A stretch of DNA of 64,000 nucleotides from an uncultured Clostridia bacterium. Lineage in GTDB: Bacteria; Bacillota; Clostridia; Christensenellales; UBA1242. This document shows positions 4,785 to 32,595 of the stretch, piece after piece. The notes beneath the pieces were generated by a model, which ran no database searches, had not been told where the DNA came from, and was given only the letters and a program-made list of their open reading frames with translations. The position numbers were made by a program, and so were the translations under genes. The stretch's first letter is position 1. Every line of letters starts with the position of its first letter. The stretch lies in NCBI GenBank assembly GCA_944377165.1, contig CALWEJ010000002.1, positions 69,764 through 133,763 on the forward strand, written 5' to 3'.

Positions 4785-4801
4785 TTGTATTTATTATAAA
4801 A

Positions 4802-4826
4802 AGCGGAGAAATCCCGCTTTTTATTT
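4802..4826 (+). terminator. rho-independent terminator
   Basis: AGCGG (4802-4806) / CCGCT (4814-4818) followed by TTTTTATTTTT. Confidence 0.7.
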
Positions 4827-5257
4827 TTATTTAATACTTAATTTAATACTTTTTTAACTTATAAAATTTTGATTAAAGTAAATTAATACATTAAAAACAC
4901 ATTAATTATTTAAATTATTTAATTTTGAATAAAAATAATCCTTTCATATAAATAGATTTTAGATATATTAGATATATAAGACAATTAATAAAATTTTATT
5001 TAACTATGATTTATAAAAATATAAATAATTATAGAAATCATAAATTATATTTACTTAATTTTTTATTTTAACCTATTTCATATAGTTTGACGGTCTTCTA
5101 TTATATAATAATTTTGGTATTTTTTATAATAATAATTTTTATTGTTTATTAAGTTTACATTATGATAAAAGAATTAATAGCAATTAATGATTTATTTATC
5201 TTATAAAATAATTGTAATTTTATGCCGAATTTGATATAATAATTTTAAGGAGATTCT

Positions 5258-6736: not shown

Positions 6737-6740
6737 ATTA

Positions 6741-6767
6741 AGTGCGGTAATTTATCGCACTTTTTTA
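6741..6767 (+). terminator. rho-independent terminator
   Basis: GTGCG (6742-6746) / CGCAC (6756-6760) followed by TTTTTT. Confidence 0.7.
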
Positions 6768-7051
6768 TTGTGAAATATATAAATTGCTAATTTATTAAAA
6801 TTTAACAATAAATTTTTAATTGTTTATTTTATAAATTTAAATTATTTGATTATTTTTTTATATAAAAATTATATAAACTATTTTTCTTATTTTTATTTAT
6901 TTTTAATGATGTATTATTATGTTTGTTTTTTAAAAAAATACTTAAATAAAATCAGTTATTGAATTGACTTACTTTAATTCTTCAAATTAAAAAATATTGT
7001 AAATTTTCTTTTATAAATAATGGTTTATTTATAATTTTTATTGTCTTTTTA

Positions 7052-7080
7052 TTGATTAATTTGTCGCAATAGTATATAAT
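7052..7080 (+). promoter_or_regulatory. candidate promoter for the 751-aa membrane protein gene
   Basis: TTGATT at 7052-7057, 17-nt spacer, TATAAT at 7075-7080. RBS AAGGAG lies ahead of the ATG at 7127. Confidence 0.5.
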
Positions 7081-7126
7081 ATATTTAAATAATATTAAAA
7101 CTATGGTTGCATAAGAAGGAGAAATT

Positions 7127-9382: not shown

Positions 9383-9452
9383 TGCCACATAATTAAAGTT
9401 GATAAAAAGTAATTTGTTGGAATTTTATTTAAACTAATTAAGAAGGGGTAAA

Positions 9453-14625: not shown

Positions 14626-14669
14626 TGGTGACCCCGCCGGGACTCGAACCCAGAACAATTCCTTAGGAG
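14626..14669 (-). pseudogene. 3' half of a disrupted host tRNA-Arg(CCT), left junction of the island
   Basis: Minus strand reads CTCCTAAG-GAAT-TGTT-CTGGG-TTCGAGT-CCCGG-CGGGGTC-ACCA. This is an anticodon loop, T arm, acceptor 3' strand and CCA with no 5' half adjacent. Confidence 0.85.
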
Positions 14670-14812
14670 CAATAGAAAATCATTAAAATATCATTTCTAA
14701 CACCAATTTTATTAATTATCATCAAAATTATAGTCAATTTTGTCCAAAATCTCAACCAAATTGACTATCTTTTCTAACTTTTAATCAAACCTCTCCAAAA
14801 TCACGGTGACGA

Positions 14813-14853
14813 TTTGGTGCACTTTTGAGCAAAATTGCAGTTTGGGTGCACTT
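14813..14853 (+). promoter_or_regulatory. left-end copies of the TTTGG(G)TGCAC repeat (candidate integrase arm-type sites)
   Basis: TTTGGTGCACTTT at 14813-14825 and TTTGGGTGCACTT at 14841-14853. The same two motifs occur at 32451-32470 just inside the other island end, in the same orientation. Confidence 0.45.
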
Positions 14854-14893
14854 AGATAAAATTAAATAATTTAAACAATCTTTGCTACCACTA

Positions 14894-14921
14894 TTCAATT
14901 TTACAATTTTTGTGTTATAAT
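14894..14921 (+). promoter_or_regulatory. candidate promoter for the helicase gene
   Basis: TTCAAT at 14894-14899, 16-nt spacer, extended -10 TGtTATAAT (TG at 14913-14914, TATAAT at 14916-14921). RBS GGAGAAA lies before the ATG at 14945. Confidence 0.5.
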
Positions 14922-14944
14922 GTAAATATATTTGGAGAAATTGC

Positions 14945-17900: not shown

Positions 17901-18385
17901 AATGTGAGTTGATTAGATTAATGAATATTCCAGAACTCAGAAAATATTTTGAAGAAAATGGTTATGCAACTGAATTTAAAAGTGGCAAATTCATTATGTC
18001 AGAATCGTTATATAAACAAGTTTACAAAGGAGCTTTGGGAGAAGTTATCGGTAAATATATTATTGATAAAGCTCTCGGTTACGATTTGGAAGAACTTGAT
18101 CATAATGGACAATATGAGGCTTTTGATTTCAAAATAAAAAACTTTTACTTTGATTTTAAACACTGGGACTACTTTATAAAAGATAATGATGGCTATTGTA
18201 ATTTTATAGAATGGAAGCTTAGTACAGTGCAAGGAGCAAAAGCTGTTGTTGCAAATATTCTTCAAAGAGGCAACCACAAAATAAATACATCTGTAGACGA
18301 TAAAATAATTCAAGTTCCTTATTTGATAAATGAAGAAAATGAAATAGATTATAAATTCATAGAAAACTTAATAGACATCATTTAA
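14945..18385 (+). CDS. large SF2 (DEAD/DEAH-like) helicase with C-terminal nuclease-like region
   Basis: Motif I LLDLPTGFGKTA, motif II TFIDEFD, motif III-like GISATAS, motif VI QAVGRICR. The C-terminal ~150 aa carry GEVIGKYI...EAFDFKI...FDFKHW, a possible PD-(D/E)xK signature. Confidence 0.7.
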   Translation: MLKSIENFVESKDNGLMLLDLPTGFGKTASVINFIKNFINNDSPVVKRVYFVTNLKSNLPEKQLKELFGNAYNDYCLYLKPYWQSVTEKWKYIQINNSEILNSDEYKNLNLDIETLYKFRADKEKFKIEKNFDHEYKQTKRLIKSYEQKIEKDTEVKFRQFIKKNYLYNKSTNDKDKFLNSNNWIMELYPACKLKDEKIKVVLSSTKKFFSPIDTFSRMPFYIYNNNAMMDNTVTFIDEFDTTKETLLTQIIDDGLKFDIDIFALFLNIYYSLTNLKFPNTLMKLSDYRKEKISNEEWEDIETLKKQLESHFVQVYNDYNFELFTKSKGFEEKKAFIFDDGKTLNIFNDNSKRVLHTKLDKDENNISLYAETKSCKEQNDKRFDNVLRKVKFAIDDFVNKTAYISKNYTDYKNQSLKGYKTKYSFEESVLTILSAFNIANEFKQYLLDRIIDKDANLKLDLPLDSEFEFMRKGFEFTEIEDDHNHDLQTKSHAFKFDTTPEDIITKLSVKSRVVGISATASIDTVIGNYDIDYLKKILKNDFYIIPINDYSRLENQFLDSQKIYNDYKIEINTIPIDDFNFFSDKEKCIEIINSLFNDENKKFYLEHLEKNISNYHFFIICKLMKLFKEVAESKNLYSFLAFLNSFPTTKDKTKSEHFLDKDILDRAIQDLISQNNYDNPPMLHIVKSNNYDEEFIKINGELAEGKKVFVLSTYKTIGNGKNIQYNIPNLEQIEQNVILFPENKPQKDFDAIYLSTPTNLIQMLSYNSENKVNELCKYLFQQEYLYQKKYIYHSERKTNIEAGFRKTFYGDKIFSSYKRNQDILLHTAQLVIQAVGRICRCRNKNKTINIFYDQEVLNRLSIIKDELLSERFIFNKEFQQLLEQPIKNDDLEFVKYTNKNKKAFVTITKMSKAVRKSEQAVFDWQDLRDFVLKNPTSNYIPDKYKELYFEFDIAYSGYAFKLNSKHEFTKISFNNSYETDQVSAEECELIRLMNIPELRKYFEENGYATEFKSGKFIMSESLYKQVYKGALGEVIGKYIIDKALGYDLEELDHNGQYEAFDFKIKNFYFDFKHWDYFIKDNDGYCNFIEWKLSTVQGAKAVVANILQRGNHKINTSVDDKIIQVPYLINEENEIDYKFIENLIDII

Positions 18386-18617
18386 CAAACAATTCCTTAC
18401 AAACTTTGTAGGTAATCTCAATCACATGGTCAACTTCAAGGTTATGAAGTTGACCTTTTTCTATGTCTAAATTAAAGTATTCTTTCCATTTGTCTTTTGA
18501 AAACCCTTTAACAAAAGCATCTTCAAGTTCACAAATTTTGTTTAATTGCAATTGCATTTCTGCAGACATTTTCTCAGTTTCGAGAATATCTCTGACTAGT
18601 TGTAAAACGTGGTTCAA
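18378..18617 (-). CDS. small hypothetical protein, paralog of 18944-19177
   Basis: TTG start preceded by GGAGGTG (8-nt spacing). Shares FV.G(L/F)(S/T)...(T)(Y/H)K(V/I)CK(E/D)(L/V)F with the other ~78-aa protein. Overlaps the upstream gene by 44 nt. Confidence 0.5.
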   Translation of the reverse strand: MNHVLQLVRDILETEKMSAEMQLQLNKICELEDAFVKGFSKDKWKEYFNLDIEKGQLHNLEVDHVIEITYKVCKELFVK

Positions 18618-18939
18618 CTTTCACACCTCCATTAGATTTTATTGAGCAATACTTGGGATAATTTTCTCCATCGCTATATACCAATACCATTACATCACAT
18701 TGAATACAGCAATACATAAGAACATGAAAAATACCATTTTCATCAATAAACATGTCTTCTTGATACTTAGCAATATTGGGCTCATCTTCTAGTAACCTTT
18801 CACGAAAAGGTATAAACTCTCGCCTTGAAAGATAAACAACCCGCTCAACCACATATTCAGCTTCAAAGCCTTCGCCTTTATCAATTCTATTTCTAAGCAA
18901 TCTGGCATTAGAAACATTACATATAAATCGTGTCTTCAT
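18574..18939 (-). CDS. hypothetical 121-aa protein
   Basis: RBS GAGGT ahead of the ATG. Cys pair MYCCIQCD. No family recognised. Confidence 0.5.
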   Translation of the reverse strand: MKTRFICNVSNARLLRNRIDKGEGFEAEYVVERVVYLSRREFIPFRERLLEDEPNIAKYQEDMFIDENGIFHVLMYCCIQCDVMVLVYSDGENYPKYCSIKSNGGVKVEPRFTTSQRYSRN

Positions 18940-18943
18940 ATCA

Positions 18944-19177
18944 TTACCTCAACTTAAACACATCTTTGCAGATTTTGTGAGTATGCTTGATATATTCTTC
19001 TGTTTGCATTTTAATTATATCTTCGACTTCTACCCAAAACTCTAAAAACTTAATACATTGCTCATCAGTTAAACCAGAAACAAAATTCATCTTCTTTTCA
19101 GCAACTTTTTCTTTTTGAGTTTTAAGTTCTCCAGAACTTATAAAAGACTTATTTACTAAATTAATTAGTTGTTTCAT
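18944..19177 (-). CDS. small hypothetical protein, paralog of 18378-18617
   Basis: ATG at 19177 is preceded by AAGGAGG. The track start at 19183 is a GTG inside the spacer. 77 aa, predicted helical. Confidence 0.5.
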   Translation of the reverse strand: MKQLINLVNKSFISSGELKTQKEKVAEKKMNFVSGLTDEQCIKFLEFWVEVEDIIKMQTEEYIKHTHKICKDVFKLR

Positions 19178-19238
19178 AAACACCTCCTTATAGGTGTTTG
19201 TCTTTTACCGTACTTTCAACTCTTTTGCAAGTCAATTC

Positions 19239-19345
19239 AAAAAAAATGTCACTAAAACTAGCAAAACTGCAAAAAATGTGCAATAACACCTTAAAAAGAT
19301 GTAAAAAATGTGTAAAATATACCAAGAAAAAGTGTAAAAAATGTG
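19239..19345. promoter_or_regulatory. four phased AAAAAATGT(G) direct repeats in a divergent promoter region
   Basis: The ATGT cores lie at 19246, 19276, 19308 and 19341, giving spacings of 30, 32 and 33 bp (about 3 helical turns). The last three copies are G(C/T)AAAAAATGTG. Confidence 0.5.
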
Positions 19346-19488
19346 GTTTCATCACATATCCCTCACATTTACAATTTAAAAAGCACCCTAGTAATTATTA
19401 TAAATAATCTAAAATATTTAATAAATTTTGTTAAATAAGCAGCTTTTTAGAAAAGTTTATGTTATAATACTCACATAGGAGAAATTTC

Positions 19489-20613
19489 ATGAAATTAGAA
19501 ATAAAACAACAAGACATAATACCTTATGTTTATTTTGTTAGTAGCATGGCTCAGCAATCAAAATCTGGAATGTTTGGATCTTTAAGTTCAAAAAGCGATC
19601 TTGTAGGTGGAATTTTTGATAGATGGATAAATATTATTCCAGAAAGTATAGTGTTTAATCAATATTTCTTACCTGAAGCAGTAAAAAAATTAAATATGAA
19701 TAAAAAAGTAAGAGTTTTTTCTGATTTCTATATGTATGATCCAAAAGTTGTAGGTATTGCACCAGATGTAATTGGTTTGCAAATTGAAAACAAAATTGTT
19801 CCTTTTGTTAAATACGATGACACAAAAGAAGATACAAAGTTTTGGGTTCCTCAAACAGAATGTCCTCAAATAGAAGTTAAGTCTTTTTTTGGTAAAAAGT
19901 ATATGGTTAGTTTAAGAGATCAACATTATGGAGATAAGTTCCTAGTAATGGTTGGAGCAAACATTGATGTTGACTACTTGCTTTCTTTCTTTGATAAAAA
20001 TATATTTACTGAAAATGAAATAAGTAAATTGACGATGCCTAATGACTTTATTGAGTCTGATAATAAAGGCTTAATTTCTAAAACAAAGCAAGTTGAATTT
20101 AACAGATGTAGTTTGGGTAGTCTGGAGCTACTTTGTGTCACAAAAGCTTCTCAATTTAGAAATATGGCACTAAAACTTAATGCAGGAGAAATTCCAAGAT
20201 ATTTCGTTGATGTAACGCAAAGAAAAGTTAAAGTAAAAGAAAGTAATTACAGTCCAAACTCTTTATTGAGTGATTATTGTGATAAACAAGAAAGTGGACT
20301 ATACAGATTTAATGACAACTGGTATTCGTTATTTACAACGCCTAAGGAAAAAACATTAGACATTGAAATTGGAGGTCCTAATGCATTAAGAGTTATAAAA
20401 AAGACCACTAATTCTATAACCGTATTAGCCGAAAGCGATACCTTCGTTAATGACTACAACCTACAAAAAGGAAATCAATATAATATAAACTTTGGAACTT
20501 TTGGTTCAATTGCAGGTGAAGAATATTTCATTAATAAAGGATTATTAAAGTATTTGCCTAATATGGAAAGCAATCTAATCGAATCATTAAGTCAGATTAT
20601 AAGGAAAAACTAA
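19489..20613 (+). CDS. putative type II restriction endonuclease (or REase subunit) 1
   Basis: RBS AGGAGA. PD-(D/E)xK-like APDVIGLQ...PQIEVKSFF. First gene of a tightly packed R-R-M-M operon. No family recognised. Confidence 0.4.
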   Translation: MKLEIKQQDIIPYVYFVSSMAQQSKSGMFGSLSSKSDLVGGIFDRWINIIPESIVFNQYFLPEAVKKLNMNKKVRVFSDFYMYDPKVVGIAPDVIGLQIENKIVPFVKYDDTKEDTKFWVPQTECPQIEVKSFFGKKYMVSLRDQHYGDKFLVMVGANIDVDYLLSFFDKNIFTENEISKLTMPNDFIESDNKGLISKTKQVEFNRCSLGSLELLCVTKASQFRNMALKLNAGEIPRYFVDVTQRKVKVKESNYSPNSLLSDYCDKQESGLYRFNDNWYSLFTTPKEKTLDIEIGGPNALRVIKKTTNSITVLAESDTFVNDYNLQKGNQYNINFGTFGSIAGEEYFINKGLLKYLPNMESNLIESLSQIIRKN

Positions 20614-20626
20614 GGAGAATATACAA

Positions 20627-21229
20627 ATGAAAATATCAAGAGAGATTTTACATTTACCCGAAGGAGATAAAAGGGCTGATGTAACAATATTTGATCAGAG
20701 AGATAATGATGAATTGAAAAAAATCTATGATGGTTGGAGATTGTTATGTGATAACTTAAATAAACTAAATGCAAGATCAGTAAATCTCCCAGAAGGACTA
20801 TCTGAAATTGGTTTTGCAATGGCTAAAAATATGTGGAGATGTACCAGCTCAATAACTGGTGCTAACTCTTCTTTTGATTGTTATGATCCTAACGGTTCTA
20901 GAGGCAACAATAGAATACAAGTAAAAGCTTGTAGTGTTCTTCCAGATTTAACTAGTTTCGGACCTCACTCGCAATGGGATAGAATATTTTTTGTTGATTT
21001 TTATAGAGAAGGAAACTGGGATAGAACTTTTGATGTATACGAAATTGCTACAAGCGATATAGAAAACTTCCCTGTAAATGCAAACCAGACAGTTGCGGAT
21101 CAAAAAGCACAAGGAAGAAGACCTCGTTTCAGTATTTATTCTGGATTAATTGAAACTGGAAGATTTATATCTAAAGAAACCTATTGCATAACAGACAATG
21201 GTGTTAAATTAATTAATAAAACAAAATAA
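20627..21229 (+). CDS. putative small type II restriction endonuclease (or REase subunit) 2
   Basis: RBS AAGGAG. FDCYDP...NRIQVKACS...LTSFGP is a PD-(D/E/Q)xK-like pattern, reminiscent (from memory only) of small Bsp6I-like enzymes. Confidence 0.45.
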   Translation: MKISREILHLPEGDKRADVTIFDQRDNDELKKIYDGWRLLCDNLNKLNARSVNLPEGLSEIGFAMAKNMWRCTSSITGANSSFDCYDPNGSRGNNRIQVKACSVLPDLTSFGPHSQWDRIFFVDFYREGNWDRTFDVYEIATSDIENFPVNANQTVADQKAQGRRPRFSIYSGLIETGRFISKETYCITDNGVKLINKTK

Positions 21230-21289
21230 AAATTTCACTGGATATTCATTAGAATTTGTGATATTTTGTTTGCTAAAGGAGAAAATAAT

Positions 21290-22408
21290 ATGCAAAAATT
21301 TAAAGTTGGAAGCCTATTTGCAGGCGTCGGAGGAATATGTTTAGGATTTAAAAATGCAAAATTTGAAGATTATTCATATAGTCTTTCATGGGCAAACGAA
21401 ATTGATCAATACGCATGTGAAACATATAGAACAAATTTTGAGCATTCTGTATTAGAAGGAGATATTAATAAAATTCTCGATACCTCATTATGTACAGAAG
21501 ACGAAAAAGAAAGATATGAACAAATGCAAAATGAGATTTTATCAAAAGATGTTGATATTCTAACAGCAGGATTTCCTTGCCAGGCATTTAGTATAGCCGG
21601 AGAAAGAAAAGGGTTTGACGATGAAAGAGGAAACTTATTCTTAAGTATTGTAAAATTGGTTAACAAAATGAAACAAAAACCAAGAGTATTATTCTTAGAA
21701 AATGTAAAAAACCTATTATCTCATGATAAAGGGCAAACCTACAAAGTCATTAAAAGCGAAATAGAAAAACTAGGTTATCATATTAAAGAGAAAGTATTCA
21801 ACACAATGGAGATGTCCACTCTTCCACAAAATAGAGAAAGAATTTATATAATCTGTTTCAAAAACAAAGAAGATTATGATAAATTTGATTTCACAATTAT
21901 AGAAAAGAAATATAAGAAGAAATATACTTCAGAAGAACGATCTGAGCAAGTTTCAAATATCATAGATTATTCATTAAAGGCAGATAATAAATATTATTAT
22001 ACCGAGTCAAAATATCCTCATTACTTCAAGCATGAGATGGATGGCGAAGATTATGTTAATTTAAATGAGCAGATTACTGAAAGATATCAATTTTATCAAT
22101 TAAGACGTGGTCTTTATGTAAGAAAGAATAAAAGCAATGTATGTCCAACACTAACTGCAAATATGGGAACTGGTGGACATAATGTACCATTGATATACGA
22201 TGGATTTGGAATTAGAAAATTATTACCTGCTGAAACATTTAGATTGCAAGGATTCCCTGTTGGCACAGAATACAAACTTCCAATAAAATTCAAGGGGAAA
22301 AATTATCCCGACTCTATGTTATATAAACAAGCAGGAAATGCTGTATCAGTTCCTGTAATTCAATTATTAGCAACAGAAATACTAAAAGTATTCAAGGAAA
22401 ACAACTAG
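21290..22408 (+). CDS. DNA (cytosine-5)-methyltransferase 1
   Basis: ATG at 21290 after AAAGGAG. Motif I FAGVGG, IV GFPCQAFSIAG, VI ENVKNL, VIII QNRERIYII, X GNAVSVPV. Confidence 0.9.
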   Translation: MQKFKVGSLFAGVGGICLGFKNAKFEDYSYSLSWANEIDQYACETYRTNFEHSVLEGDINKILDTSLCTEDEKERYEQMQNEILSKDVDILTAGFPCQAFSIAGERKGFDDERGNLFLSIVKLVNKMKQKPRVLFLENVKNLLSHDKGQTYKVIKSEIEKLGYHIKEKVFNTMEMSTLPQNRERIYIICFKNKEDYDKFDFTIIEKKYKKKYTSEERSEQVSNIIDYSLKADNKYYYTESKYPHYFKHEMDGEDYVNLNEQITERYQFYQLRRGLYVRKNKSNVCPTLTANMGTGGHNVPLIYDGFGIRKLLPAETFRLQGFPVGTEYKLPIKFKGKNYPDSMLYKQAGNAVSVPVIQLLATEILKVFKENN

Positions 22409-23353
22409 ATGAAAGTTGCAAGTATGTTTGCGGGAATTGGTGGTATATGTTTAGGCTTTAAACAGGCTGGATTTGATATTGTTTGGGCAAATGAAGTTGA
22501 TAATGATGCATGCAAAACATATAGAAAAAATTTAGGCGATCACTATCTAATTGAAGACGATATTAGAAATATTGATCCTAAAACATTGCCAGATTTTGAT
22601 GTTCTAACCGCAGGTTTTCCTTGTCAACCATTCTCTATTGCTGGAAAGCAAAAAGGATTTAAAGATAAACGAGGAAATCTATTCTTTGAAATTGCTAAAA
22701 TAATAGATGTAAAAAGACCTAAGATTGTCTTTTTAGAAAATGTTAGAAATCTTGAAGAGCACGACAATGGTAAAACTTTTTTGGTTATATACAATACATT
22801 AGCACAGTTTGGTTACGGTGTAAGATATAAAGTCTTAAATGCTAAAGACTATGGAGTGCCACAAAACAGAGAAAGAATATTTATTATTGGTTTTTTAGAT
22901 GATTGGCAATGCAATAATTTCAAATATCCTGAGGCTATAAAATCGCCAGAGTCTATTTTTGACATAATAAGAACTTCGGACAAAAAACATCCATTTTATT
23001 ATTATGACGATAAAAGTCCATATTTTCAAATGCTAAGTAAATCTATTATTGATAAAAGCAAAATTTATAAATTAACTGACTATGGAGTAAGAAAAAGCAA
23101 AACTAGTATATGCCCCACTTTAACAGCAAATATGGGGACATTTCCAGATAGAGTCCCTATAATAAAAGATGATTTCGGCATAAGAAAACTAATGCCATCA
23201 GAATGTCTTTTACTTCAAGGCTTTCCAGACAATTTCCAGTTTCAGAAAAACATTTCAATAGAAAGTGCGTACAAGCAAGTTGGAAATTCTGTATGTGTAC
23301 CATTAATAAAATTTTTAGCAGAACAATTAAAAGTTATTATGGAGATTAAATAG
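22409..23353 (+). CDS. DNA (cytosine-5)-methyltransferase 2
   Basis: The ATG abuts the upstream stop (TAGATG). Motif I FAGIGG, IV GFPCQPFSIAG, VI ENVRNL, VIII QNRERIFIIGF, X GNSVCVPL. Confidence 0.9.
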   Translation: MKVASMFAGIGGICLGFKQAGFDIVWANEVDNDACKTYRKNLGDHYLIEDDIRNIDPKTLPDFDVLTAGFPCQPFSIAGKQKGFKDKRGNLFFEIAKIIDVKRPKIVFLENVRNLEEHDNGKTFLVIYNTLAQFGYGVRYKVLNAKDYGVPQNRERIFIIGFLDDWQCNNFKYPEAIKSPESIFDIIRTSDKKHPFYYYDDKSPYFQMLSKSIIDKSKIYKLTDYGVRKSKTSICPTLTANMGTFPDRVPIIKDDFGIRKLMPSECLLLQGFPDNFQFQKNISIESAYKQVGNSVCVPLIKFLAEQLKVIMEIK

Positions 23354-23686
23354 ATGAAAGCATTAATTATTAAAAAGCCTTGGATTGATTACATTTTAGA
23401 GGGTAAAAAAACATGGGAAATTCGTGGAAGTAATACTAATATCAGAGGTCAAATAGAGCTTATACAAAGCGGAAGTGGTTTGGTTGTAGGTTCTTGCGAG
23501 ATTATAGATTGTAAAGAATTGACTTTAGATGATTATAAAAACAATACTGATAAACACAACATTAAAAACGTTGAGGCTCTTCCCTACAAAAAGACATATG
23601 CTTGGGTTATGTTGAACGCAAAGAAATATGAAACAGCTAGAAAATATAAACATCCTAACGGTGCGATAATATGGGTAAATTTATAA
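23354..23686 (+). CDS. ASCH (PUA-like) domain protein
   Basis: 110 aa. IKKPWIDYILEGKKTWEIRG followed by beta-rich segments is typical of ASCH domains. The start abuts the MTase-2 stop (TAGATG), suggesting translational coupling. Confidence 0.55.
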   Translation: MKALIIKKPWIDYILEGKKTWEIRGSNTNIRGQIELIQSGSGLVVGSCEIIDCKELTLDDYKNNTDKHNIKNVEALPYKKTYAWVMLNAKKYETARKYKHPNGAIIWVNL

Positions 23687-24074
23687 GAACGGATAATATC
23701 TGCTCTTTTTTATAGTTTTTACCCTTTTATATACAAAACACCTGCGACACCTGCAACTCCTGCAATATAATCTTTAATAAAATAGCCTTACGATATGTTA
23801 TTTTAGTGAGTAAGTGTTTATATGTACTCACGTATTACAGGAGTCGCATATGGTTACATTAGAAATCCTCTAAAACAATTAAAAATTAATAAAAAGATTT
23901 TCTTTTTGCTAAATTGTGTCTCGATCTAAAGAAAACTTATAAAAAGGCACGAAGTGAAACAAAAGGGAACAAAATGAATACAAAAAGCGTGACCAACCCC
24001 GTATAATAGAAGTATAAAGAAAGAAATTGCCGATAAGAGAAGTTGTAAAAAACTTCTCTTTTTTTGTTGCAAAA

Positions 24075-24625
24075 TTTTTTCCGTCGTAAAAGATGTGTTG
24101 ACAGCGGGCTTTATAAACTATAAGAAAAAAACAAAAAAATTTCCCGTTGGTTCAAATGGTGAGCCAGCGGGAAATGTAAAATAACTTTATAAATTTTTAT
24201 GATCCACAAGATGTGTGTAACAACAAGTGTAAAATTTTATAAAAAATAAATCTCGTAGCACACAACGTGTGTGATGCGACTTTGTTACCATAATAAAGAA
24301 AATAATATTTCCCGCTTGACCAAGCGTTGGTAAAGCGAGCTTGATACAATTTTATAAAAAGATTTCCCGATAGGAAAAATGGTTTCCGAACGAAAGAATT
24401 AAAATAAAAAAAATTTATATTAGGAACAATGATTTCCGAGTTGAAAATGTATTATATGGCAAAGGAGATAAAAATAAAAAATTTTCCCCGATAGGACAAA
24501 TGGTGTCTTATCGAGATTGATAAAATCAAATAAAGTTATAGGTATTCCAATTATTGAAGCACCTTGCCAAATGGAATATAAACACTAAAACCAAAATTGG
24601 TTTTACCGATGGACTGCAGCCGTCG
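24075..24625 (+). repeat. array of about 10 imperfect hairpins with ~55-60-bp period and A/T-rich spacers
   Basis: Stems at 24081-24107, 24140-24174, 24253-24279, 24312-24325, 24368-24392, 24422-24437, 24489-24513, 24543-24578, 24587-24604 and 24607-24625. Recurrent ATTTCCCG and AAATGGT motifs. Confidence 0.7.
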
Positions 24626-24694
24626 TTAAAATATAGCCAAAGTTAAGACTTGATCAACCTTAATATAGGCACAAAATCTAATAAAGGAGATAAA

Positions 24695-25348
24695 ATGAGA
24701 AATTTCATATTTGAATTTGAACAAGATAAAGCATTAGAATTTGGCTTAAAATTAAACGAATTGTTATTGCTTGATTATATGTTGAAATTCTTCCATACAG
24801 ATCGAGTTAAAAGACAAAGAAAAGGAGAACGATTTTATTGTAGACTTACTTATAACAAAGTTCTAGGCGACCTACCTATCCTTAGAATAAAGGAAAGACA
24901 ATTAAGGAATATGATTATTGGTCTTGAAAAGAAAGGAATAGTTGAAAGGTTCTCTGAACTGAAAAATCAAATGTATCTATATGTGGACTTTAATAAGTTA
25001 TTTGGCAATGATTTGCCTAACGATACAAATGGACAAGCAAGTTCTTGCCCAGATGTCGGAAGCAAAGTTCCTACAATAGATAATTATGATAATAATAAAA
25101 TAAAAATAAAAATTAATAACGCGCGTGTACGAGAGTTAGATTTAGAAATTTTCAATAAAGTACTGCATGAGTTATTAAAAGAAAGAGTAAGTAAAATATC
25201 TTACGATTTATTCTTTTATGTTACCAAAGCAATTCAATTAGAAGATGATGGAATTATATTCAGGGTCAAATGGAAAGAACGTATTGAACAGGCTTTTATG
25301 GATAAATTCACATCAATAGTTGAAGAAGCTGTCTCAAAATTTATTTAA
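24695..25348 (+). CDS. winged-HTH, replication-initiator/DnaD-like protein (tentative)
   Basis: ATG at 24695 after AAAGGAG (the track TTG at 24650 is less likely). wHTH-like LTYNKVLGDLPILRIKERQLRNMIIGLEKKGIVERF. Repeat arrays lie on both sides. Confidence 0.35.
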   Translation: MRNFIFEFEQDKALEFGLKLNELLLLDYMLKFFHTDRVKRQRKGERFYCRLTYNKVLGDLPILRIKERQLRNMIIGLEKKGIVERFSELKNQMYLYVDFNKLFGNDLPNDTNGQASSCPDVGSKVPTIDNYDNNKIKIKINNARVRELDLEIFNKVLHELLKERVSKISYDLFFYVTKAIQLEDDGIIFRVKWKERIEQAFMDKFTSIVEEAVSKFI

Positions 25349-25424
25349 TACCCCCAGGGGCGGTCAAATCTCTAAGCAAAACCCTTTTATGAGCGGGACG
25401 GCAGTCACGCAAAAACTTTCGCAA

Positions 25425-25548
25425 AATCAAAAATCAAAGAAAAAATCAAAAAATGAAAAGAAAATGGCTCAAAAGAGTCTAAAAATATGGGGTTTATAGT
25501 GATTTTGATTTTGTGAGATTAATCAAAATAAATCAAATTGAAATCAAA
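25425..25548. repeat. AATCAAA iteron-like repeats directly 3' of the rep-like gene
   Basis: AATCAAA at 25425, 25432, 25444, 25521, 25531 and 25542. Inverted copies lie in GATTTTGATTTTG at 25501-25513. Confidence 0.6.
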
Positions 25549-25680
25549 AATATTCAAAATACATATTGTTCGGCAATTTTAAGTTTTGGAAAGCCGTTAA
25601 AAACGATTGTCGCAAACTTTATTTCAAAATGGATAAATTATTCAAGAAATATGGTTTCAAGCGATTTGAAAGGGTTTTTG

Positions 25681-25766
25681 CAAGGATTTGAGCATTCAAA
25701 CAAGATTACAAAGATGCAAGAATTCAAGATTACAAAATTTCAAGGATACAAAGATACAAGGATTTT
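25681..25766 (+). repeat. CAAG(G)AT(T)ACAAA direct repeats upstream of xis
   Basis: CAAGATTACAAA at 25701 and 25725, CAAGGATACAAA at 25741, and partial CAAGGATTT at 25681 and 25757. Confidence 0.6.
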
Positions 25767-25867
25767 AATTTATTTTGCTGTTTCACTGGACTTGTAAAGT
25801 TCTTTGCGGTACTTTTTGTATCGCATAGAACCTCAAGTCTGGTGTGCATCAGCACGAGAGAGGTATC

Positions 25868-26086
25868 ATGAAAAGAATTAGAACAATAACTGAAACATTA
25901 CAAATGTTAAAAAAAGAAGATCCAAACACTGGGCTTAGCGAGTTCTTAATTAGAAAACTTGCAAACAACTACAAAATTCGCTCATTTAAAACTGGAAATA
26001 AAATACTAATTGACTATGATTCACTAATGGCGTTCTTGCAAAGTCAAGATTATGACCTACCAATGGAACAAATCGTAGTTAGATAA
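25868..26086 (+). CDS. xis: excisionase-family HTH DNA-binding protein
   Basis: ATG at 25868 after GAGAGAGG. 72 aa. The pattern ...LIRKLANNYKIRSFKTGNKILIDYDSLMAFL is typical of Tn916-type Xis/MerR-like excisionases. Lies immediately upstream of int. Confidence 0.65.
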   Translation: MKRIRTITETLQMLKKEDPNTGLSEFLIRKLANNYKIRSFKTGNKILIDYDSLMAFLQSQDYDLPMEQIVVR

Positions 26087-26100
26087 AAGGAGAATTAAAT

Positions 26101-27492
26101 ATGGCATGTATACAGAAAAAGAAATTATTAGATGGAACAATATCTTATAGAGTTCAAGTAAAGGCTAAAAATCAAAGAACAGGAAAATTTGAGGCAAAAG
26201 CAATTACTTGGAAGAAACCGCTAGAACTTACAGAAACTCAAGCAAAGAAAGAACTACAAAGGATTGCACTAGAACTTGAAGAAAGATTTAATAAACAACT
26301 CAACGGGCTATTAGCAGTCGACAACGATATAACCTTTATAGACTATGCCGAAAGATGGCTAGAAAAGATTAAGAATACACGTTCACTTAACTACTATGTT
26401 AAGGGTCGAGATTGCTTGAAGAAATTCTATAAATACTTCGGAAACATAAAACTCAATCAAATAACACCAGTAATGGTGCAAGGTTTCCTAGATGATATGA
26501 TGATGAAAAGATACGAAAAGAAATCCGCTAGACTTACTGGTGACTTAAATCAATACTTAAAATCTCACTGCATCAAGCAAGTAGATGCTTTGAAAAAGAT
26601 TGGAATATCTAAATCAATACTAGCATCGGCAAATGCAGGATATTGCATACGAATAGAAAATGCAGAAAAGATATGTAATGCACTAGGCTTAAAGTATGAA
26701 GATTACTTTACAACAGAGGTGCAAAGTCGCGCCTATGCAAAAGAAACAATAATGAAACTAAAACGAACACTAGCAACAATACTCGCAGATGCAAAGCGAC
26801 AAAGATTGGTTGAGCACAACTTCGCATCTCGTGACTATATAGCACCAATACAAGGTTATAAAAAAGAAGTTAAGATACTTAACGATAAAGAAGCTAAGAT
26901 ATTAGCCAGCTACTTACACACAGAACCAAACCCTAGATGGAAGATTGCATTACTCACAGTATTATTTATGGGATTAAGGCGTGGTGAACTTGCAGGGCTA
27001 GAATGGAAAGATATTGACTACGAAAACAAAACAATGACCATAGCAAGATCGGTTCAAGATATTATAGGGTTTGGACTTATAACCAAAGAACCCAAAACTG
27101 AAAACTCAAAAAGAACAATCTCAATGCCAGACAAACTGATTGACTATTTGAAAGAATACGAAATATGGTGGCTAAATCAAAAGAAATATCTTGGAGATAG
27201 ACTTGGAAATACCGATAGATTATTCTGCACAGAAGATGGCACAGATATCTCACCAGGATTATTCAGAGTATGGCTACAAAAAACACTGGCAAAAGTCGAC
27301 CTGCCAAAAGTAACTCTCCACTCCCTAAGACACACAAACATAACCTTACAATTAGTAGCAGGAGTAGATATGAAAACAGTATCTGCCCGTGCAGGACACT
27401 CAAAAGCATCAACCACAAGCGACTTCTACAGTCACTTCATAAAGAACTCAGATATCCACGCAAGTGAAATACTAAATAAAATATTTGAATAA
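26101..27492 (+). CDS. int: tyrosine site-specific recombinase (phage-integrase family, Tn916-like size)
   Basis: 463 aa. Box I GLRRGELAGLEW, HSLRHT (H-x-x-R), GHSKASTTSDFYSH (catalytic Tyr). N-terminal arm-binding-type domain. RBS AAGGAG. Confidence 0.9.
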   Translation: MACIQKKKLLDGTISYRVQVKAKNQRTGKFEAKAITWKKPLELTETQAKKELQRIALELEERFNKQLNGLLAVDNDITFIDYAERWLEKIKNTRSLNYYVKGRDCLKKFYKYFGNIKLNQITPVMVQGFLDDMMMKRYEKKSARLTGDLNQYLKSHCIKQVDALKKIGISKSILASANAGYCIRIENAEKICNALGLKYEDYFTTEVQSRAYAKETIMKLKRTLATILADAKRQRLVEHNFASRDYIAPIQGYKKEVKILNDKEAKILASYLHTEPNPRWKIALLTVLFMGLRRGELAGLEWKDIDYENKTMTIARSVQDIIGFGLITKEPKTENSKRTISMPDKLIDYLKEYEIWWLNQKKYLGDRLGNTDRLFCTEDGTDISPGLFRVWLQKTLAKVDLPKVTLHSLRHTNITLQLVAGVDMKTVSARAGHSKASTTSDFYSHFIKNSDIHASEILNKIFE

Positions 27493-27498
27493 CAAAAA

Positions 27499-27532
27499 GA
27501 TTCCTAAGAGATGAAACTCTTAGGAGTCTTTT
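27499..27532. terminator. bidirectional hairpin between int and the STAND-like gene
   Basis: GATTCCTAAGAG (27499-27510) / CTCTTAGGAGTC (27517-27528), flanked by A- and T-runs. The right arm contains CTTAGGAG, identical to the island core repeat. Confidence 0.65.
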
Positions 27533-30500
27533 AATGTAGATTAAATTCGTCTAATAAAACTGCCGCTTCTGGAATTCTTAAATTTATTAAGATTTCTAAC
27601 ATTTTTTTGTAAGAATCTATTAACTTTTGGTTCTTTTTTATTAATCTATTTGTCTTTAAATATGCTGTGGTAATAATTTCAACAACTATAAATCTAAATT
27701 CAAAAACTAATTGTTTTAGCAAAACTGCATTTTTATTAAATAAACTTTCAATTATTACACTTAAGGAAATTAAAATATTTGGTACAAGTTTATCAATTTT
27801 AAACTGCTTAATTGTTATTAATACATCTTTAAAACAGAACTCTCCAAATTTTATAAATTGATTATTAATAAAATCAATATTTTCTTCTGTAAATTCTGTT
27901 TTACACTTTTCAAAACTAGACAACCATTTTGGCATTCCAAATATTAATGATTTGTACATACTCTGAGGAGTATTATTATTTCCAAGTATGTAGTCTTCTA
28001 TTTTTAAAATTATGTTTTGATATAACTTTCTTTCAGTTTGGTTATTATAGGAGTCAAAATAATTTAAAGATAATTGAGAAAAAATTTCATTGCAAAAATC
28101 AACAGCCTCATGATCAAAATTTACATTATTTAAATTATTAAACAACATATCAATAACAAAAGAATGTGCTTTTGCATCTATTATTTGTGTTTTTAAAAAA
28201 TCTTTCAAGTCACATACATTATAATATGAAACTACGTCTAACCAACCATGGTTGCTTTTGAGCATGTTGTTAAATAAACAATTTAAACATTGATTAACAA
28301 TCTCTCCTTGCTCATTATTTAATAAAGAAATATTACAGTGCACAATGCTTAACAAAAGAGAAATATCATAATTATTAATGTTAAAATCATTTAAAACGAG
28401 AGCTTCTTCTTTTATTAAATATTTTGTAATTATTTCGTCTTCTTTGCTTTCAAATTTATTTGCACCGTTTTTTTCTATTATATAATCAACTCTAGAAAGA
28501 TGAGGTGTTTCATTAGGAACAAAATCAATGAATTCATTTTGGGTATCTTGATAATATTTTAAGTTATAATACTGATGATTCATTTCATTTTCTGATAACT
28601 TAATAATGGTATTATATAAAGCTTTAGATAATGTTAAATTTTTTCCCAAATATAAATTTAGGATTCTTTTAAATTGAGAAATAGTGCCATCTTGACCATC
28701 AAAAATTATTATATTTAACATTAATAATTTGATTCTTTTTTTCATTTTTGCTGAAATATTTTCGTTCACTTGAGAAAATAAAATTATAATAGGATGCAAA
28801 TCATTTATGATAAATCCTTTATTGTTTAAAAACCCTTCAAATCCAGAAAGTAAGTAATTACAATATTTTTCACGATGATAACTGTCCAATTCTTTATTGG
28901 TTAATATTGATCCTAAAACAACAATTATTGCATCGTCAAATTGTCTCACAATACATTTATTTGAATTTCTTAAAATATTATTTATTAACTTTAAGTCTTT
29001 ATCAAAATCAAAGGTTTGTTCTTTAATTTTCATTAAGCATGCTGAAATTTCTTTATTAATCAAAACATCATATTTGTTAATCTTTTTTGAATGATTTTGA
29101 ATTTCTTTTGCCTCACCAGTTATATTTGCTTCTAAAACTTCTATTCCTGGTGCAAAATTTCTTTTCTTATAAGTTCTGACATCCATTTTCTGAATTTGTA
29201 ATAAATTATTTGGATCTCCATTCTGATTTTTTTTATACAAATAATCTATAATTTTATAGCATTTTTTAACTATAGAATCATCAGATAATAGCTGGCAATT
29301 AGCCATATAATCAACTAACAAAGATGTGTTTTTGTGTTCATATCTATCTTTTATATAAGGAAGTCCTATTTTTAAACACATTTGCTTTATTAAGATTTCT
29401 TTTGTAGGATTTTTTGCCACTAAACTATATCTGGTATAATCCAATAAAACAAAATCAATATTTGTTACCAAATCCAAAGCGTAGCCTGGTAATTCTTTTG
29501 AACACGATAGTCCTATTTCTTCTATGATAGAAAGCAGAAAGATGTTGTTTGTTTTTTCATAAATGGTATTTTTTATAAAATTTGCAAAATTTCTTCTCTT
29601 GTTTATATCAATATTTATGTTTTTAATTTGATCAATACAATAATCTTTCAAAATATACAACAAATCACCAACAAGCATTGGATTGTTATAAGTTTGTGAT
29701 GTTGCCATCCACATTTCTGGCAGTCCCCAATATGTTTTTGTTTTATCAGAATCTACAAATACCACCTCATATTCTAATAAAGGATTCTCTAAGTCAGAGT
29801 ATCTTGAAACGATTTTGTTGACAATCTCTATTGTCCAGTTCAAGCCTTTAATAAAGTTAAAATTAAACATATTATTAAAGAAATTATTATTGTATAAAGA
29901 TTCATTAGAACTATGTTCATATGATTCTGCATTGTGGCTTAGATTATAACTTTTGATTAGTCCTTTCTTTTCTTCTCTGCAAAATACTGGTATTTTTGAA
30001 TAGTCAACAAATTTATCTTCAAACCAATAAAGTTCTAACAATTCACATAATGGTTCTAATAAATATATTGACAACATAAAATTATCCGCTTTGATTGTAT
30101 TTTCTATAATCGTTTTTGCAAAGTCTGATAAATCCTCATCCGGTTCTTTATACCATTTATTCAGTTTCTTCCAAAATAAAATTATCCAATCCTTTGCGAC
30201 TTTTGAATATTTATAGAGAATATTTAAATGATCTAATATTAAAGATTTTAAATGATAATCATTTGATTTTATAAAATCGTCAATTTCAGCTTCTAAATAA
30301 TATTCTAATATACTGCAAGCATCATTTAAATAGCAATCTGAGATTTCATTTTGAATTGTTAGATGATTGCACATCATTAATAGATCTTCTTTGTATTGAG
30401 TATCTTTATAAATCTCTTTTTCATTGCAAATATGTATAATAGCAGAACGTGCTTGTCCGCTTGGGGATAATAACATATGATTGGTAAATCCATTTAGTTT

Positions 30501-32264
30501 TGTTATGTTAAAAGCATATAAGTTAGTCAGTTCTATTAATTCTTTTAAAATTCCACATTCTATAATATCTTCAGAATAGTTTATAATTAAACTAAGACAA
30601 TAATCAGACTTTATAATTCCTATCAATGTCTCTTTTTTTAATGCATTCGGAGTGGTATCAGAAAAAATAATATTATGTAAAATATTGTAGCCAGAGGCTT
30701 GGTTAAAAAGTTTGTTTGAAATCCATATTTGGTATCTTCGATATGCACAGTTTCCATATTGAAGAATAGCGTTGTAGAAATTTAAATAATTGTTTTTGCA
30801 ATCATCAAAAGACTTATCAAAAAGATGTTCAAAACATATATCTTCATAAATATCATATTTTAATCTTATCTTATCATCATCAATGCAACAAAGCACATCT
30901 TCTGAAATTAGAGCATTTATAATGTCACTATCATAGTCTTCTTTATGGACACCAATTAAAAATCGCATTGATCTAGTAGTAGTTATTTTAACGACAGTGG
31001 ATAATATTTCATTGTATTTTAAATCATATTTTTTGCAAACATCTTTTAGACAAATAACATTTTCCCAAATAAACTTTCTTAAAACATGTTCATTCTCAAA
31101 ATTTGATGAGATATTACATTTAGTTATTATTAAATTAAGGTAAAATGGAGATTTGAAAAACTCGCTATATTCAAAGTTTGATGACAACTTAGAAATAATC
31201 GGGTATTTATTTTTTATTTTTGAAAATTCATCTGTATCAATATTTCCAATACTATAATAATCCATGTATTTTGACAATGTAAGCAATATTCCGTTATCAG
31301 TATTTCTGCAAGATGTTATTATATTAATATTTTTAAAATCATTTGTTAACCAATAAAGTTCTTCCAATAATTCTAATTTTGAGTTTTTATCAGATATAGA
31401 CTCTATAGAATCTATAAAAAAAATAATTTTTTTGCTTTTTGTATATTTAATTAAATCCTTAATATTAATATCCCATATATTATTCAAATGGTTTGCTTGC
31501 AAAAAACTTTCGGCTCTTGCATATAATAAAACATTTTCATTTTCAACTAGATTTTTGCAAAGAGCCGATTTACCACAACCAGCTGGTCCTATTATGCAGA
31601 TATTGTTTTTGTTTAAAGCTTTAATATTTTCTATATCTTTAGTTCTGTCTATATGATATTCTCCGTTTATAGTATCCACTATTTTAGGAAGATAAAAATT
31701 TTTACTACGATCAGATATATGTTTAAGCTTCTCTTGTGTTCTTTCGATTTTCTCTGTCTCATCATGTAAAAGATTGTATAAAGAAGTTTTAAACAATCTA
31801 TCGTTTTTTGCTCTTTCAATTATTTTTGTTATTGTTATTAGATTTTTAGATTTTCTAAACGATATATTTCCAATTTTATTTTTACCTATATAATCTTTTA
31901 TTTTTTCTTCATTTGGTGTTAAAGCAAAAAATATTATTTCAGGAATATCTTTGTATTTGTTCGATTTTGAGTCTCTAATCTTTATAAGAGTATTGTGTAT
32001 TTTTTCATTTAAATCAGACTGAGAAGTAACTTGTACATATAAATTAGAATCTTTCGAAATTAAGTCTATATATGGAAATGTAAATGTTCCAGCATTTAAA
32101 TTCTCAAATTCTACGCCATACCATAATTTACAAATCTCTTTTGCAAACAACTCATATAATACCGCATTATTAAACAACCCAGCTTTGTTTGCTGTTTTTA
32201 TTTTTGCAACATATGAAGATAAATATTCAATAATATAATCAATTTCTCTCTCTGCTTTTGTCAT
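27531..32264 (-). CDS. giant P-loop NTPase, STAND/Avs-like architecture (N-terminal module, NTPase, ~1200-aa helical C-terminal region)
   Basis: ATG at 32264 after GGGAGA (the track TTG at 32282 lies in the leader). Walker A IIGPAGCGKS (31566-31589), Walker B-like KIIFFIDSIES. N-terminal FPYIDLISKDSNLYVQVTSQ module. Long Leu/Ile/Asn-rich helical remainder. Confidence 0.65.
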   Translation of the reverse strand: MTKAEREIDYIIEYLSSYVAKIKTANKAGLFNNAVLYELFAKEICKLWYGVEFENLNAGTFTFPYIDLISKDSNLYVQVTSQSDLNEKIHNTLIKIRDSKSNKYKDIPEIIFFALTPNEEKIKDYIGKNKIGNISFRKSKNLITITKIIERAKNDRLFKTSLYNLLHDETEKIERTQEKLKHISDRSKNFYLPKIVDTINGEYHIDRTKDIENIKALNKNNICIIGPAGCGKSALCKNLVENENVLLYARAESFLQANHLNNIWDINIKDLIKYTKSKKIIFFIDSIESISDKNSKLELLEELYWLTNDFKNINIITSCRNTDNGILLTLSKYMDYYSIGNIDTDEFSKIKNKYPIISKLSSNFEYSEFFKSPFYLNLIITKCNISSNFENEHVLRKFIWENVICLKDVCKKYDLKYNEILSTVVKITTTRSMRFLIGVHKEDYDSDIINALISEDVLCCIDDDKIRLKYDIYEDICFEHLFDKSFDDCKNNYLNFYNAILQYGNCAYRRYQIWISNKLFNQASGYNILHNIIFSDTTPNALKKETLIGIIKSDYCLSLIINYSEDIIECGILKELIELTNLYAFNITKLNGFTNHMLLSPSGQARSAIIHICNEKEIYKDTQYKEDLLMMCNHLTIQNEISDCYLNDACSILEYYLEAEIDDFIKSNDYHLKSLILDHLNILYKYSKVAKDWIILFWKKLNKWYKEPDEDLSDFAKTIIENTIKADNFMLSIYLLEPLCELLELYWFEDKFVDYSKIPVFCREEKKGLIKSYNLSHNAESYEHSSNESLYNNNFFNNMFNFNFIKGLNWTIEIVNKIVSRYSDLENPLLEYEVVFVDSDKTKTYWGLPEMWMATSQTYNNPMLVGDLLYILKDYCIDQIKNINIDINKRRNFANFIKNTIYEKTNNIFLLSIIEEIGLSCSKELPGYALDLVTNIDFVLLDYTRYSLVAKNPTKEILIKQMCLKIGLPYIKDRYEHKNTSLLVDYMANCQLLSDDSIVKKCYKIIDYLYKKNQNGDPNNLLQIQKMDVRTYKKRNFAPGIEVLEANITGEAKEIQNHSKKINKYDVLINKEISACLMKIKEQTFDFDKDLKLINNILRNSNKCIVRQFDDAIIVVLGSILTNKELDSYHREKYCNYLLSGFEGFLNNKGFIINDLHPIIILFSQVNENISAKMKKRIKLLMLNIIIFDGQDGTISQFKRILNLYLGKNLTLSKALYNTIIKLSENEMNHQYYNLKYYQDTQNEFIDFVPNETPHLSRVDYIIEKNGANKFESKEDEIITKYLIKEEALVLNDFNINNYDISLLLSIVHCNISLLNNEQGEIVNQCLNCLFNNMLKSNHGWLDVVSYYNVCDLKDFLKTQIIDAKAHSFVIDMLFNNLNNVNFDHEAVDFCNEIFSQLSLNYFDSYNNQTERKLYQNIILKIEDYILGNNNTPQSMYKSLIFGMPKWLSSFEKCKTEFTEENIDFINNQFIKFGEFCFKDVLITIKQFKIDKLVPNILISLSVIIESLFNKNAVLLKQLVFEFRFIVVEIITTAYLKTNRLIKKNQKLIDSYKKMLEILINLRIPEAAVLLDEFNLH

Positions 32265-32284
32265 ATAATTCTCCCATTGCAATC

Positions 32285-32313
32285 ATTATAGCACATTTTT
32301 ACAAGATTGTTAT
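32285..32313 (-). promoter_or_regulatory. candidate promoter of the STAND-like gene
   Basis: On the minus strand: extended -10 TGcTATAAT (plus-strand 32285-32293) and a weak -35 ATAACA at 32308-32313. The implied leader is short. Confidence 0.45.
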
Positions 32314-32320
32314 AAGTATA

Positions 32321-32348
32321 AATAAAAAAGACCAACTTTTTGGTCTTT
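32321..32348 (-). terminator. terminator downstream of the island-borne tRNA-Arg
   Basis: AAAGACCAA (32327-32335) / TTGGTCTTT (32340-32348), followed by a T-run on the minus strand. Confidence 0.7.
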
Positions 32349-32353
32349 AAAAT

Positions 32354-32430
<77 letters not shown>

Positions 32431-32450
32431 ATATTAAGTTTTTTAGTGGT

Positions 32451-32470
32451 TTTGGTGCACTTTGGGTGCA
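32451..32470 (+). promoter_or_regulatory. right-end copies of the TTTGG(G)TGCA repeat (candidate arm-type sites and/or tRNA promoter -35)
   Basis: TTTGGTGCAC at 32451-32460 and TTTGGGTGCA at 32461-32470, matching 14813-14853. On the minus strand GTGCACC lies 17 nt upstream of TAATAT, ahead of the island tRNA. Confidence 0.45.
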
Positions 32471-32555
32471 AATCGTAATTGTGCGTGTTTTGAGTAGTTG
32501 TTAAATGTCCGTGTTTTAGGGATATGTAGCAGTTTTATTTTAGTACAAGTCGGTA

Positions 32556-32595
32556 CTTAGGAGGGAACCGTAATATCCTGTTTTACTACGAGATC
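32556..32595 (-). pseudogene. 5' half of the disrupted host tRNA-Arg(CCT), right junction of the island
   Basis: Minus strand reads GATCTCG-TA-GTAA-AACAGGATA-TTAC-G-GTTCC-CTCCTAAG. It pairs perfectly in register with the orphan 3' half at 14626-14661. Confidence 0.85.

Follow-up and report, generated by a model that had tools for sequence, protein, structure and literature searches.

What is encoded by the very large gene that lies between the integrase gene and an intact tRNA gene on a mobile island of an uncultured Clostridia bacterium? The locus belongs to contig CALWEJ010000002.1, and all positions below refer to the 64,000-nucleotide window of that contig that was analyzed here. A first-pass annotation, made from the sequence alone, had described the product as a STAND-like P-loop nucleoside triphosphatase (NTPase) and a candidate antiviral sensor, the only gene between the integrase gene and the island-borne tRNA, and had been unable to assign it to any named family. 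The gene does stand alone in that interval. As for its family, we conclude that it very probably encodes a divergent member of Avs4 (antiviral STAND type 4), a placement that rests on family profiles, predicted structures and the PADLOC scores of relatives, so that the earlier view that no family could be named no longer holds.

The open reading frame (ORF) is uninterrupted and begins with ATG; an alternative upstream TTG start at 32282 would extend the protein from 1577 to 1583 amino acids (aa). The protein has three parts, an N-terminal SMEK_N domain, a P-loop NTPase and about 1050 aa of helical sequence. The G+C content of the gene is 24%, against 29-32% on either side, and an identical protein is encoded by nine metagenome contigs (gut-type), each time in the same context.

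Relationship to Avs4

A profile made from 62 full-length family members (alignment A1) matched PDB chain 8dgf_A, the Escherichia coli Avs4 protein (EcAvs4) in complex with the PhiV-1 portal, at E 1.5e-71, with profile positions 171-1354 aligned to chain positions 172-1367, which spans the NTPase and most of the sensor. Because A1 holds a few rows closer to canonical Avs4, the profile was rebuilt from the 31 SMEK-bearing members only (alignment A6), and this profile matched 8dgf at E 4e-44 (profile 177-1158, chain 179-1180). The PADLOC-DB v2 hidden Markov model (HMM) for Avs4, PDLC02169, scored an EcAvs4 fragment at 1e-229 and two members of the present family at 4.5e-147 (P0297) and 2.5e-38 (P0170).

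Foldseek searches of AlphaFold2 models, a check that the first-pass annotation had proposed, put 8dgf at the top for both halves of the protein. Residues 1-560 were modeled with a predicted local distance difference test score (pLDDT) of 89.6 and a predicted template modeling score (pTM) of 0.82, and their best PDB match was 8dgf (E 6.3e-15), followed by NLRP14, EfAvs5, NLRP3, SAMD9, Avs3 and CED-4. The model of residues 521-1577 (pLDDT 89.7, pTM 0.81) was nearly all helical, and its best match was 8dgf_B (E 1.5e-19), with a template modeling (TM) score of 0.66 over 1153 columns. All other listed matches of this part, including CAND1, karyopherins and other helical solenoids, had TM scores of 0.11-0.21; because of this difference, the sensor is regarded as having the specific Avs4 architecture and not just a helical repeat fold. 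The large helical C-terminal part had been described as a huge repeat sensor, and since self-BLAST found no internal sequence repeats in this region, the term holds in a structural, solenoid sense only.

The motifs quoted in the first-pass annotation were all present, namely FPYIDLISKDSNLYVQVTSQ at residues 63-82, Walker A (GPAGCGKS) at 226-233 and Walker B (IIFFIDSIES) at 279-288, the last in the D-x-x-E form with D285 and E288. In A1, G226, G229, G231 and K232 of Walker A and D285 and E288 of Walker B were invariant, as was R320 within TSCR, which resembles the STAND sensor-1 motif hhhT(S/T)R; further invariant positions were R431, D471, E474, D475 and W514. The model is laid out as a beta-alpha core (221-338), a group of helices (344-434) and a helix with a beta-hairpin (446-489). 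The NTPase thus belongs to the STAND class, as had been suspected, and the same effector-NTPase-sensor logic and STAND NTPase fold (Foldseek E 1e-5 to 1e-8) are found in Avs3, Avs5, NLRP3, CED-4 and SAMD9. The sensors of those proteins are unrelated, however, and the C-terminal 1050 residues were matched by Avs4 alone.

Library searches of the P-loop region gave generic matches (AAA, AAA_22, NPHP3_N, nSTAND5, NACHT and ClpX), with Pfam nSTAND and NACHT matches of the query remaining below threshold. A classical AAA+ protein, such as a ClpX-like unfoldase, was considered and rejected, as the homology covers the P-loop core only and STAND proteins outrank AAA+ proteins in Foldseek.

Compared with EcAvs4, the query is of the same length class (1577 and 1587 aa) and has the same order of parts, a PD-(D/E)xK-type nuclease, a STAND NTPase and a large helical sensor in a single-gene system, along with the D-x-x-E form of Walker B, the hhhT(S/T)R motif and a DIYE(D/E) motif. 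The two proteins differ in that BLASTP identity in the NTPase region is only about 23-25%: 23% over 186 aa against EcAvs4 residues 172-652, and 24.6% over 468 aa (E 2.7e-14) against a small set of EcAvs4-like proteins, which came from a search with an EcAvs4 fragment and comprised proteins of at most 850 aa, many from short contigs. They also differ in host range, the query family being found in Bacillota and gut anaerobes and the EcAvs4 side in Proteobacteria, and in nuclease subtype. The N-terminus of EcAvs4 was considered as a SMEK-like domain itself and rejected, since it had no match to a SMEK-only profile even at E<=10; therefore, the two nucleases differ in subtype at the sequence level.

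By profile, Foldseek and invariant residues, the NTPase, whose two Walker motifs are intact, is a homologue of the Avs4 branch of STAND; by profile and Foldseek, the C-terminal part is homologous to the portal-binding sensor of Avs4; and the N-terminal effector varies within the family, with SMEK_N here and alternative N-domains in relatives. Missed by PADLOC and by single-sequence search, the query is therefore a member of a divergent, mostly Bacillota clade, which is linked to canonical Avs4 through intermediates.

SMEK effector domain and the wider family

The first-pass annotation had likened the N-terminal domain to SMEK-type domains, and this proved right. Pfam SMEK_N (PF21941) matched residues 10-152 at E 1.3e-27 (96.8 bits against a cut-off of 27), a match that includes the FPYIDLISKDSNLYVQVTSQ signature, and NCBIfam SMEK_N (NF033859) scored 55.6 bits against a cut-off of 30. 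Sequence comparison with the PDB found 26bh, the 'Mrr domain of Kordia jejudonensis Mrr-APAZ pAgo', at E 2e-11; the homology extends over the N-terminal ~155 residues, and both sequences have the residues E...NLN...D...Q-x-[ST]...K. The model shows the order alpha-beta-beta-beta-alpha-beta, and E38, N55, N57, D67 and Q78 are nearly invariant in A1. In the Kordia protein (PADLOC Aga_REase-PNTD), as here, it serves an immune sensor as effector. There its fusion partner is APAZ and control lies with a guide-loaded Argonaute, whereas in the present protein a STAND NTPase and a protein sensor follow it; the island showed no Argonaute gene.

When residues 200-1399 were searched against 1.84 billion representatives at 50% identity, only 288 clusters matched at E<=1e-3, and 118 of them reached E<=1e-30. 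Among the full-length matches, almost all were 1500-1600 aa long with alignments beginning near residue 200. The family is patchy and rare among these representatives; the 90% cluster of one relative held 6898 member sequences. Only three relatives were found on IMG/VR viral contigs, and therefore the family is not mainly phage-borne. Seventy-nine loci were collected from species-representative genomes, mostly of Lachnospiraceae, other Clostridia, Erysipelotrichia and Acholeplasma-like bacteria, with a few Fusobacteriota, Fibrobacterota and Bacteroidota. A metagenome bin labelled 'Escherichia coli' includes a relative with 31% identity to the query (L074, contig CAVGNR010000003.1); since Bacillota otherwise account for almost all of the family, this contig may be mis-binned.

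Most of the 79 loci carry SMEK, and alternative N-domains were traced among the members with local HMMs. About 16 loci carry an unrelated N-terminal domain of ~170 aa that starts with MDLVxAIGLLSSxVTLEEAGRSW (L030, L038, L040, L042-L044, L046, L047, L051, L055 and L083-L085, together with truncated matches at L063, L078 and L082). This domain opens with a hydrophobic segment and had no Pfam match. As an effector, it may act on membranes or without enzymatic activity, and it might be related to the uncharacterized EcAvs2 effector of a recent preprint (bioRxiv 10.64898/2026.04.30.721860). The N-terminus of P0297 is an LmuA/Avs2-type nuclease. Published work on Avs families describes the same arrangement, in which the NTPase and sensor are conserved and the N-terminal effector is exchanged (PMC12642450; bioRxiv 10.64898/2026.04.30.721860).

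The neighborhoods of homologues agree with the earlier expectation of defence islands, as restriction, abortive infection (Abi), TIR and other defence genes were found there. In a descriptive tally of 138 immediate neighbors at 35 loci, the top Pfam families were ResIII, AAA_21, DEAD, SWI2_SNF2, integrase and SMC_N, along with RhuM, YhcG, N6_N4_Mtase, the type I R subunit, RloB and SLFN_AlbA_2; the commonest PADLOC models were MADS, AriA, AbiL, PbeA, type III/IV restriction-modification (R-M) and PDC candidates, and type I R-M also occurred. At single loci, a YhcG nuclease with AIPR and a TIR/SEFIR protein with an NYN protein were seen. This pattern is as expected for a defence gene. Of the outcomes that the first-pass annotation would have taken as a refutation, none was encountered.

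Proposed mode of action and its alternatives

By analogy with characterized Avs4 proteins, we propose that the protein probably acts as a single-protein innate immune receptor, in which portal binding would be followed by ATP-dependent tetramerization and non-specific DNA cleavage. In the uninfected cell, it would be an autoinhibited monomer. When a tailed phage infects the cell, monomeric portal protein would be bound by the C-terminal sensor, and the ATP-bound NTPase would then tetramerize, bringing four N-terminal nuclease domains together and activating SMEK, which would degrade double-stranded DNA non-specifically and abort the infection. For the portal as the trigger, our confidence is moderate. 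Activation by portal proteins has been described for Avs4 of E. coli, Acinetobacter and Streptomyces (PMC12642450). Tetramerization that switches on the N-terminal nuclease has been described for EcAvs4 (PMC11897194; bioRxiv 10.64898/2026.04.30.721860), and non-specific DNA degradation for activated Avs3 and Avs4 (PMC11564622).

Several results weigh against this interpretation, beginning with the family placement itself. The PADLOC check yielded nothing significant for the query, which had no Avs match at E<=1 with PDLC02169, and the SMEK members P0160, P0209, P0242 and P0260 were not scored by that model; three of these four matched only the Argonaute-associated REase model (PADLOC Aga_REase), through the N-domain. 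A single-sequence phmmer search of the query against the PDB did not find 8dgf at E<=1, and single-sequence searches of PADLOC, NCBIfam, PHROGs and the PDB returned only SMEK_N and weak P-loop/ClpX matches. We read the PADLOC miss as a sensitivity limit of one HMM and not as evidence against homology; an unplaced family, which the single-sequence searches would have suggested, was rejected on the basis of profiles and structure. Identity to EcAvs4 in structural alignments is 13-17%, a remote relationship, and 13% in the sensor, so trigger specificity may differ. The missing SMEK-profile match of EcAvs4 means that the geometry of effector activation is extrapolated, and the neighborhood tally is no measure of statistical enrichment. 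Finally, SMEK has Q-x-[ST] (Q78-V-T80; QVT or QVS in the family) in place of the (D/E)-x-K of canonical PD-(D/E)xK nucleases, so that a catalytic role would presumably depend on K88 or on a lysine relocated elsewhere.

The low identity of the sensor bears on a second reading, in which a receptor of Avs4 fold has come to recognize several triggers, or a phage protein that is not the portal, with the same oligomerization and SMEK activity downstream. The sensor is the least conserved part, with 20-30% identity even to its closest relatives; one receptor can sense several proteins, as KpAvs2 does (PMC11564622), and unrelated sensors such as those of Avs11 and Avs4 can have a common target (PMC12803255). 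We nevertheless consider this reading unlikely, as the sensor follows EcAvs4 in its overall fold along its full length (TM 0.66), the sequence profile aligns through ~850-1000 sensor residues, and portals activated every Avs4 homologue assayed in published work, which covers three phyla and different effectors (PMC12642450). A wider version appears doubtful to us as well, namely that the mostly Bacillota group of SMEK carriers (118 clusters at E<=1e-30; 288 at E<=1e-3), which is missed by PADLOC, the single detection library applied, is a functionally distinct offshoot of Avs4, combining a sensor scaffold perhaps retargeted to a non-portal trigger (e.g., a protein of gut-anaerobe phages), an Argonaute-type SMEK nuclease without the canonical lysine, and a sister clade whose ~170-aa effector is perhaps non-enzymatic.

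With portal sensing by a divergent Avs4 as the preferred reading, its toxic output could differ from that of EcAvs4 if SMEK were not an active DNase here and served instead for DNA binding, RNA cutting or oligomerization. The replacement of the canonical lysine by Thr or Ser and the sequence difference from the EcAvs4 nuclease speak for such a role, which we judge quite improbable given that E38, D67, Q78 and K88 are invariant across the SMEK clade and common to the Kordia pAgo-associated domain, which argues for a conserved active site. K88, which is invariant and lies on the following helix, may be the relocated lysine. A SMEK-APAZ protein with its pAgo has also been reported as a nuclease that cleaves nucleic acid (PMC10810196, citing Kim et al., 2020).

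A non-defence ATPase, either a housekeeping AAA+/ClpX-like protein or one with an island maintenance or transfer function, would fit the adjoining integrase and the weak AAA (Pfam) and ClpX (NCBIfam, PDB) matches, but is extremely improbable and already largely refuted, as those matches (E 1e-4 to 1e-7) are confined to the P-loop core at residues ~200-325 and lie below curated cut-offs except for PF00004 (30 bits), structure and profile group the protein with Avs4 and NLR-type STANDs, the homologues occur without integrases in varied defence-type neighborhoods, and members of the family are few and scattered (288 clusters in 1.84 billion representatives).

The mobile island and significance

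The gene and its surroundings are listed in Table 1. The island spans ~14670-32555 (17.9 kb) and is inserted in the anticodon loop of a host tRNA-Arg(CCT): the 8-mer CTTAGGAG is present at 14662-14669 and 32556-32563, and the two tRNA halves joined in silico gave a clean 76-nt tRNA-Arg(CCT) with ARAGORN, which therefore places the insertion in that loop. The intact tRNA-Arg(CCT) carried by the island would compensate for the split host tRNA. An attachment repeat at the intact tRNA was considered and rejected, since its 3' end has no direct repeat and the boundaries are halves of a different tRNA-Arg. A search of JGI metagenome contigs for the empty site gave no match to a 31-mer spanning the junction of the rejoined host tRNA.

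Table 1. Features of the Avs4-like gene, the island and its boundaries (window positions).
Feature	Position	Strand	Basis or remark
3' half of split host tRNA-Arg(CCT), island boundary	14626..14669	-	Second core copy at 14662-14669
DdmD-like protein, 1146 aa	14945-18385	+	PADLOC DdmD, E 3.7e-31, residues 187-1074
Bsp6I-like restriction endonuclease and two consecutive C5 methylases (type II R-M)	20627-23353	+	Library matches
ASCH-domain protein, following the C5 methylases	20627-23686 (whole module)	+	Library match
Tyrosine integrase of the island	26101..27492	+	Pfam Phage_integrase and SAM-like N domains; convergent with the Avs4-like gene
Terminator-like hairpin between the convergent integrase and Avs4-like genes	27502..27525	-	Directly after the stop codon; contains 8-mer CTCCTAAG
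Avs4-like antiviral STAND gene, 1577 aa	27531..32264	-	Intact ORF; stop codon 27531-27533
C-terminal helical sensor, residues 521-1577	27534..30704	-	Model and Foldseek
STAND NTPase module, residues ~200-500 (nucleotide-binding, helical and winged-helix parts)	30765..31667	-	Invariant columns, model, Foldseek
SMEK (Mrr-like PD-(D/E)xK) candidate nuclease effector domain, residues 1-165	31770..32264	-	Pfam, NCBIfam, PDB match, model
Promoter-like site ATAACA-17-(TG)TATAAT	32285..32313	-	Consensus match only; just upstream of ATG
Terminator-like hairpin after island-borne tRNA-Arg(CCT), upstream of the gene	32327-32348	-	Hairpin scan
Island-borne intact tRNA-Arg(CCT)	32354..32430	-	ARAGORN; differs from split host tRNA
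5' half of split host tRNA-Arg(CCT), island boundary	32556..32595	-	Ends in crossover core CTCCTAAG (32556-32563)

The Avs4-like gene is a monocistronic unit with convincing punctuation on both sides. It had been credited with its own extended -10 promoter, and the top-scoring promoter-like match of the region does lie just upstream of the ATG; since this DNA is AT-rich and such matches are frequent in it (50 against 40 expected), the promoter evidence is weak and position is the main argument. A third copy of the core CTTAGGAG at 27519-27526 (+) falls within the terminator hairpin; it is probably due to chance, or could be left over from an insertion of the Avs4-tRNA segment in tandem or as a module. 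Just inside both island ends, direct repeats TTTGGTGCAC... occur at 14813-14842 and 32451-32480 (+). They are candidate arm-type integrase binding sites and would flank the core in a circularized element.

The neighboring R-M genes noted earlier form a module that is preceded by a 374-aa ORF (19489-20613) without a family match. For the DdmD-like protein, Pfam gave nothing at E<=0.001, and a partner resembling DdmE was not evident beside its gene; a few small ORFs are also found on the island. Outside the island, Pfam gave nothing at E<=1e-5 for a giant ORF of 3665 aa (42451-53448, +). The region 1981-12200 has the look of a conjugative element, with a type IV secretion coupling protein (1981-4011, -) and a P-loop ATPase of VirB4/TraG type (9453-12200, +); it ends a few kb short of the 14.6-kb end of the island.

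These results involve no new principle of immunity and no new kind of system; their value lies in better annotation of gut Bacillota and in an exposed detection gap. Proteins of this type are common in the genomes of gut Clostridia, Lachnospiraceae, Erysipelotrichia and Acholeplasma-like bacteria, and PADLOC v2 under-detects Avs4 in Bacillota; therefore, counts of Avs in gut anaerobes taken from PADLOC are likely too low. The SMEK nuclease of short-Argonaute systems is also linked to STAND receptors as a common, swappable effector. Furthermore, an unannotated giant 'SMEK domain-containing protein' is turned into a concrete and testable prediction, a portal-sensing nuclease that would act by abortive infection.

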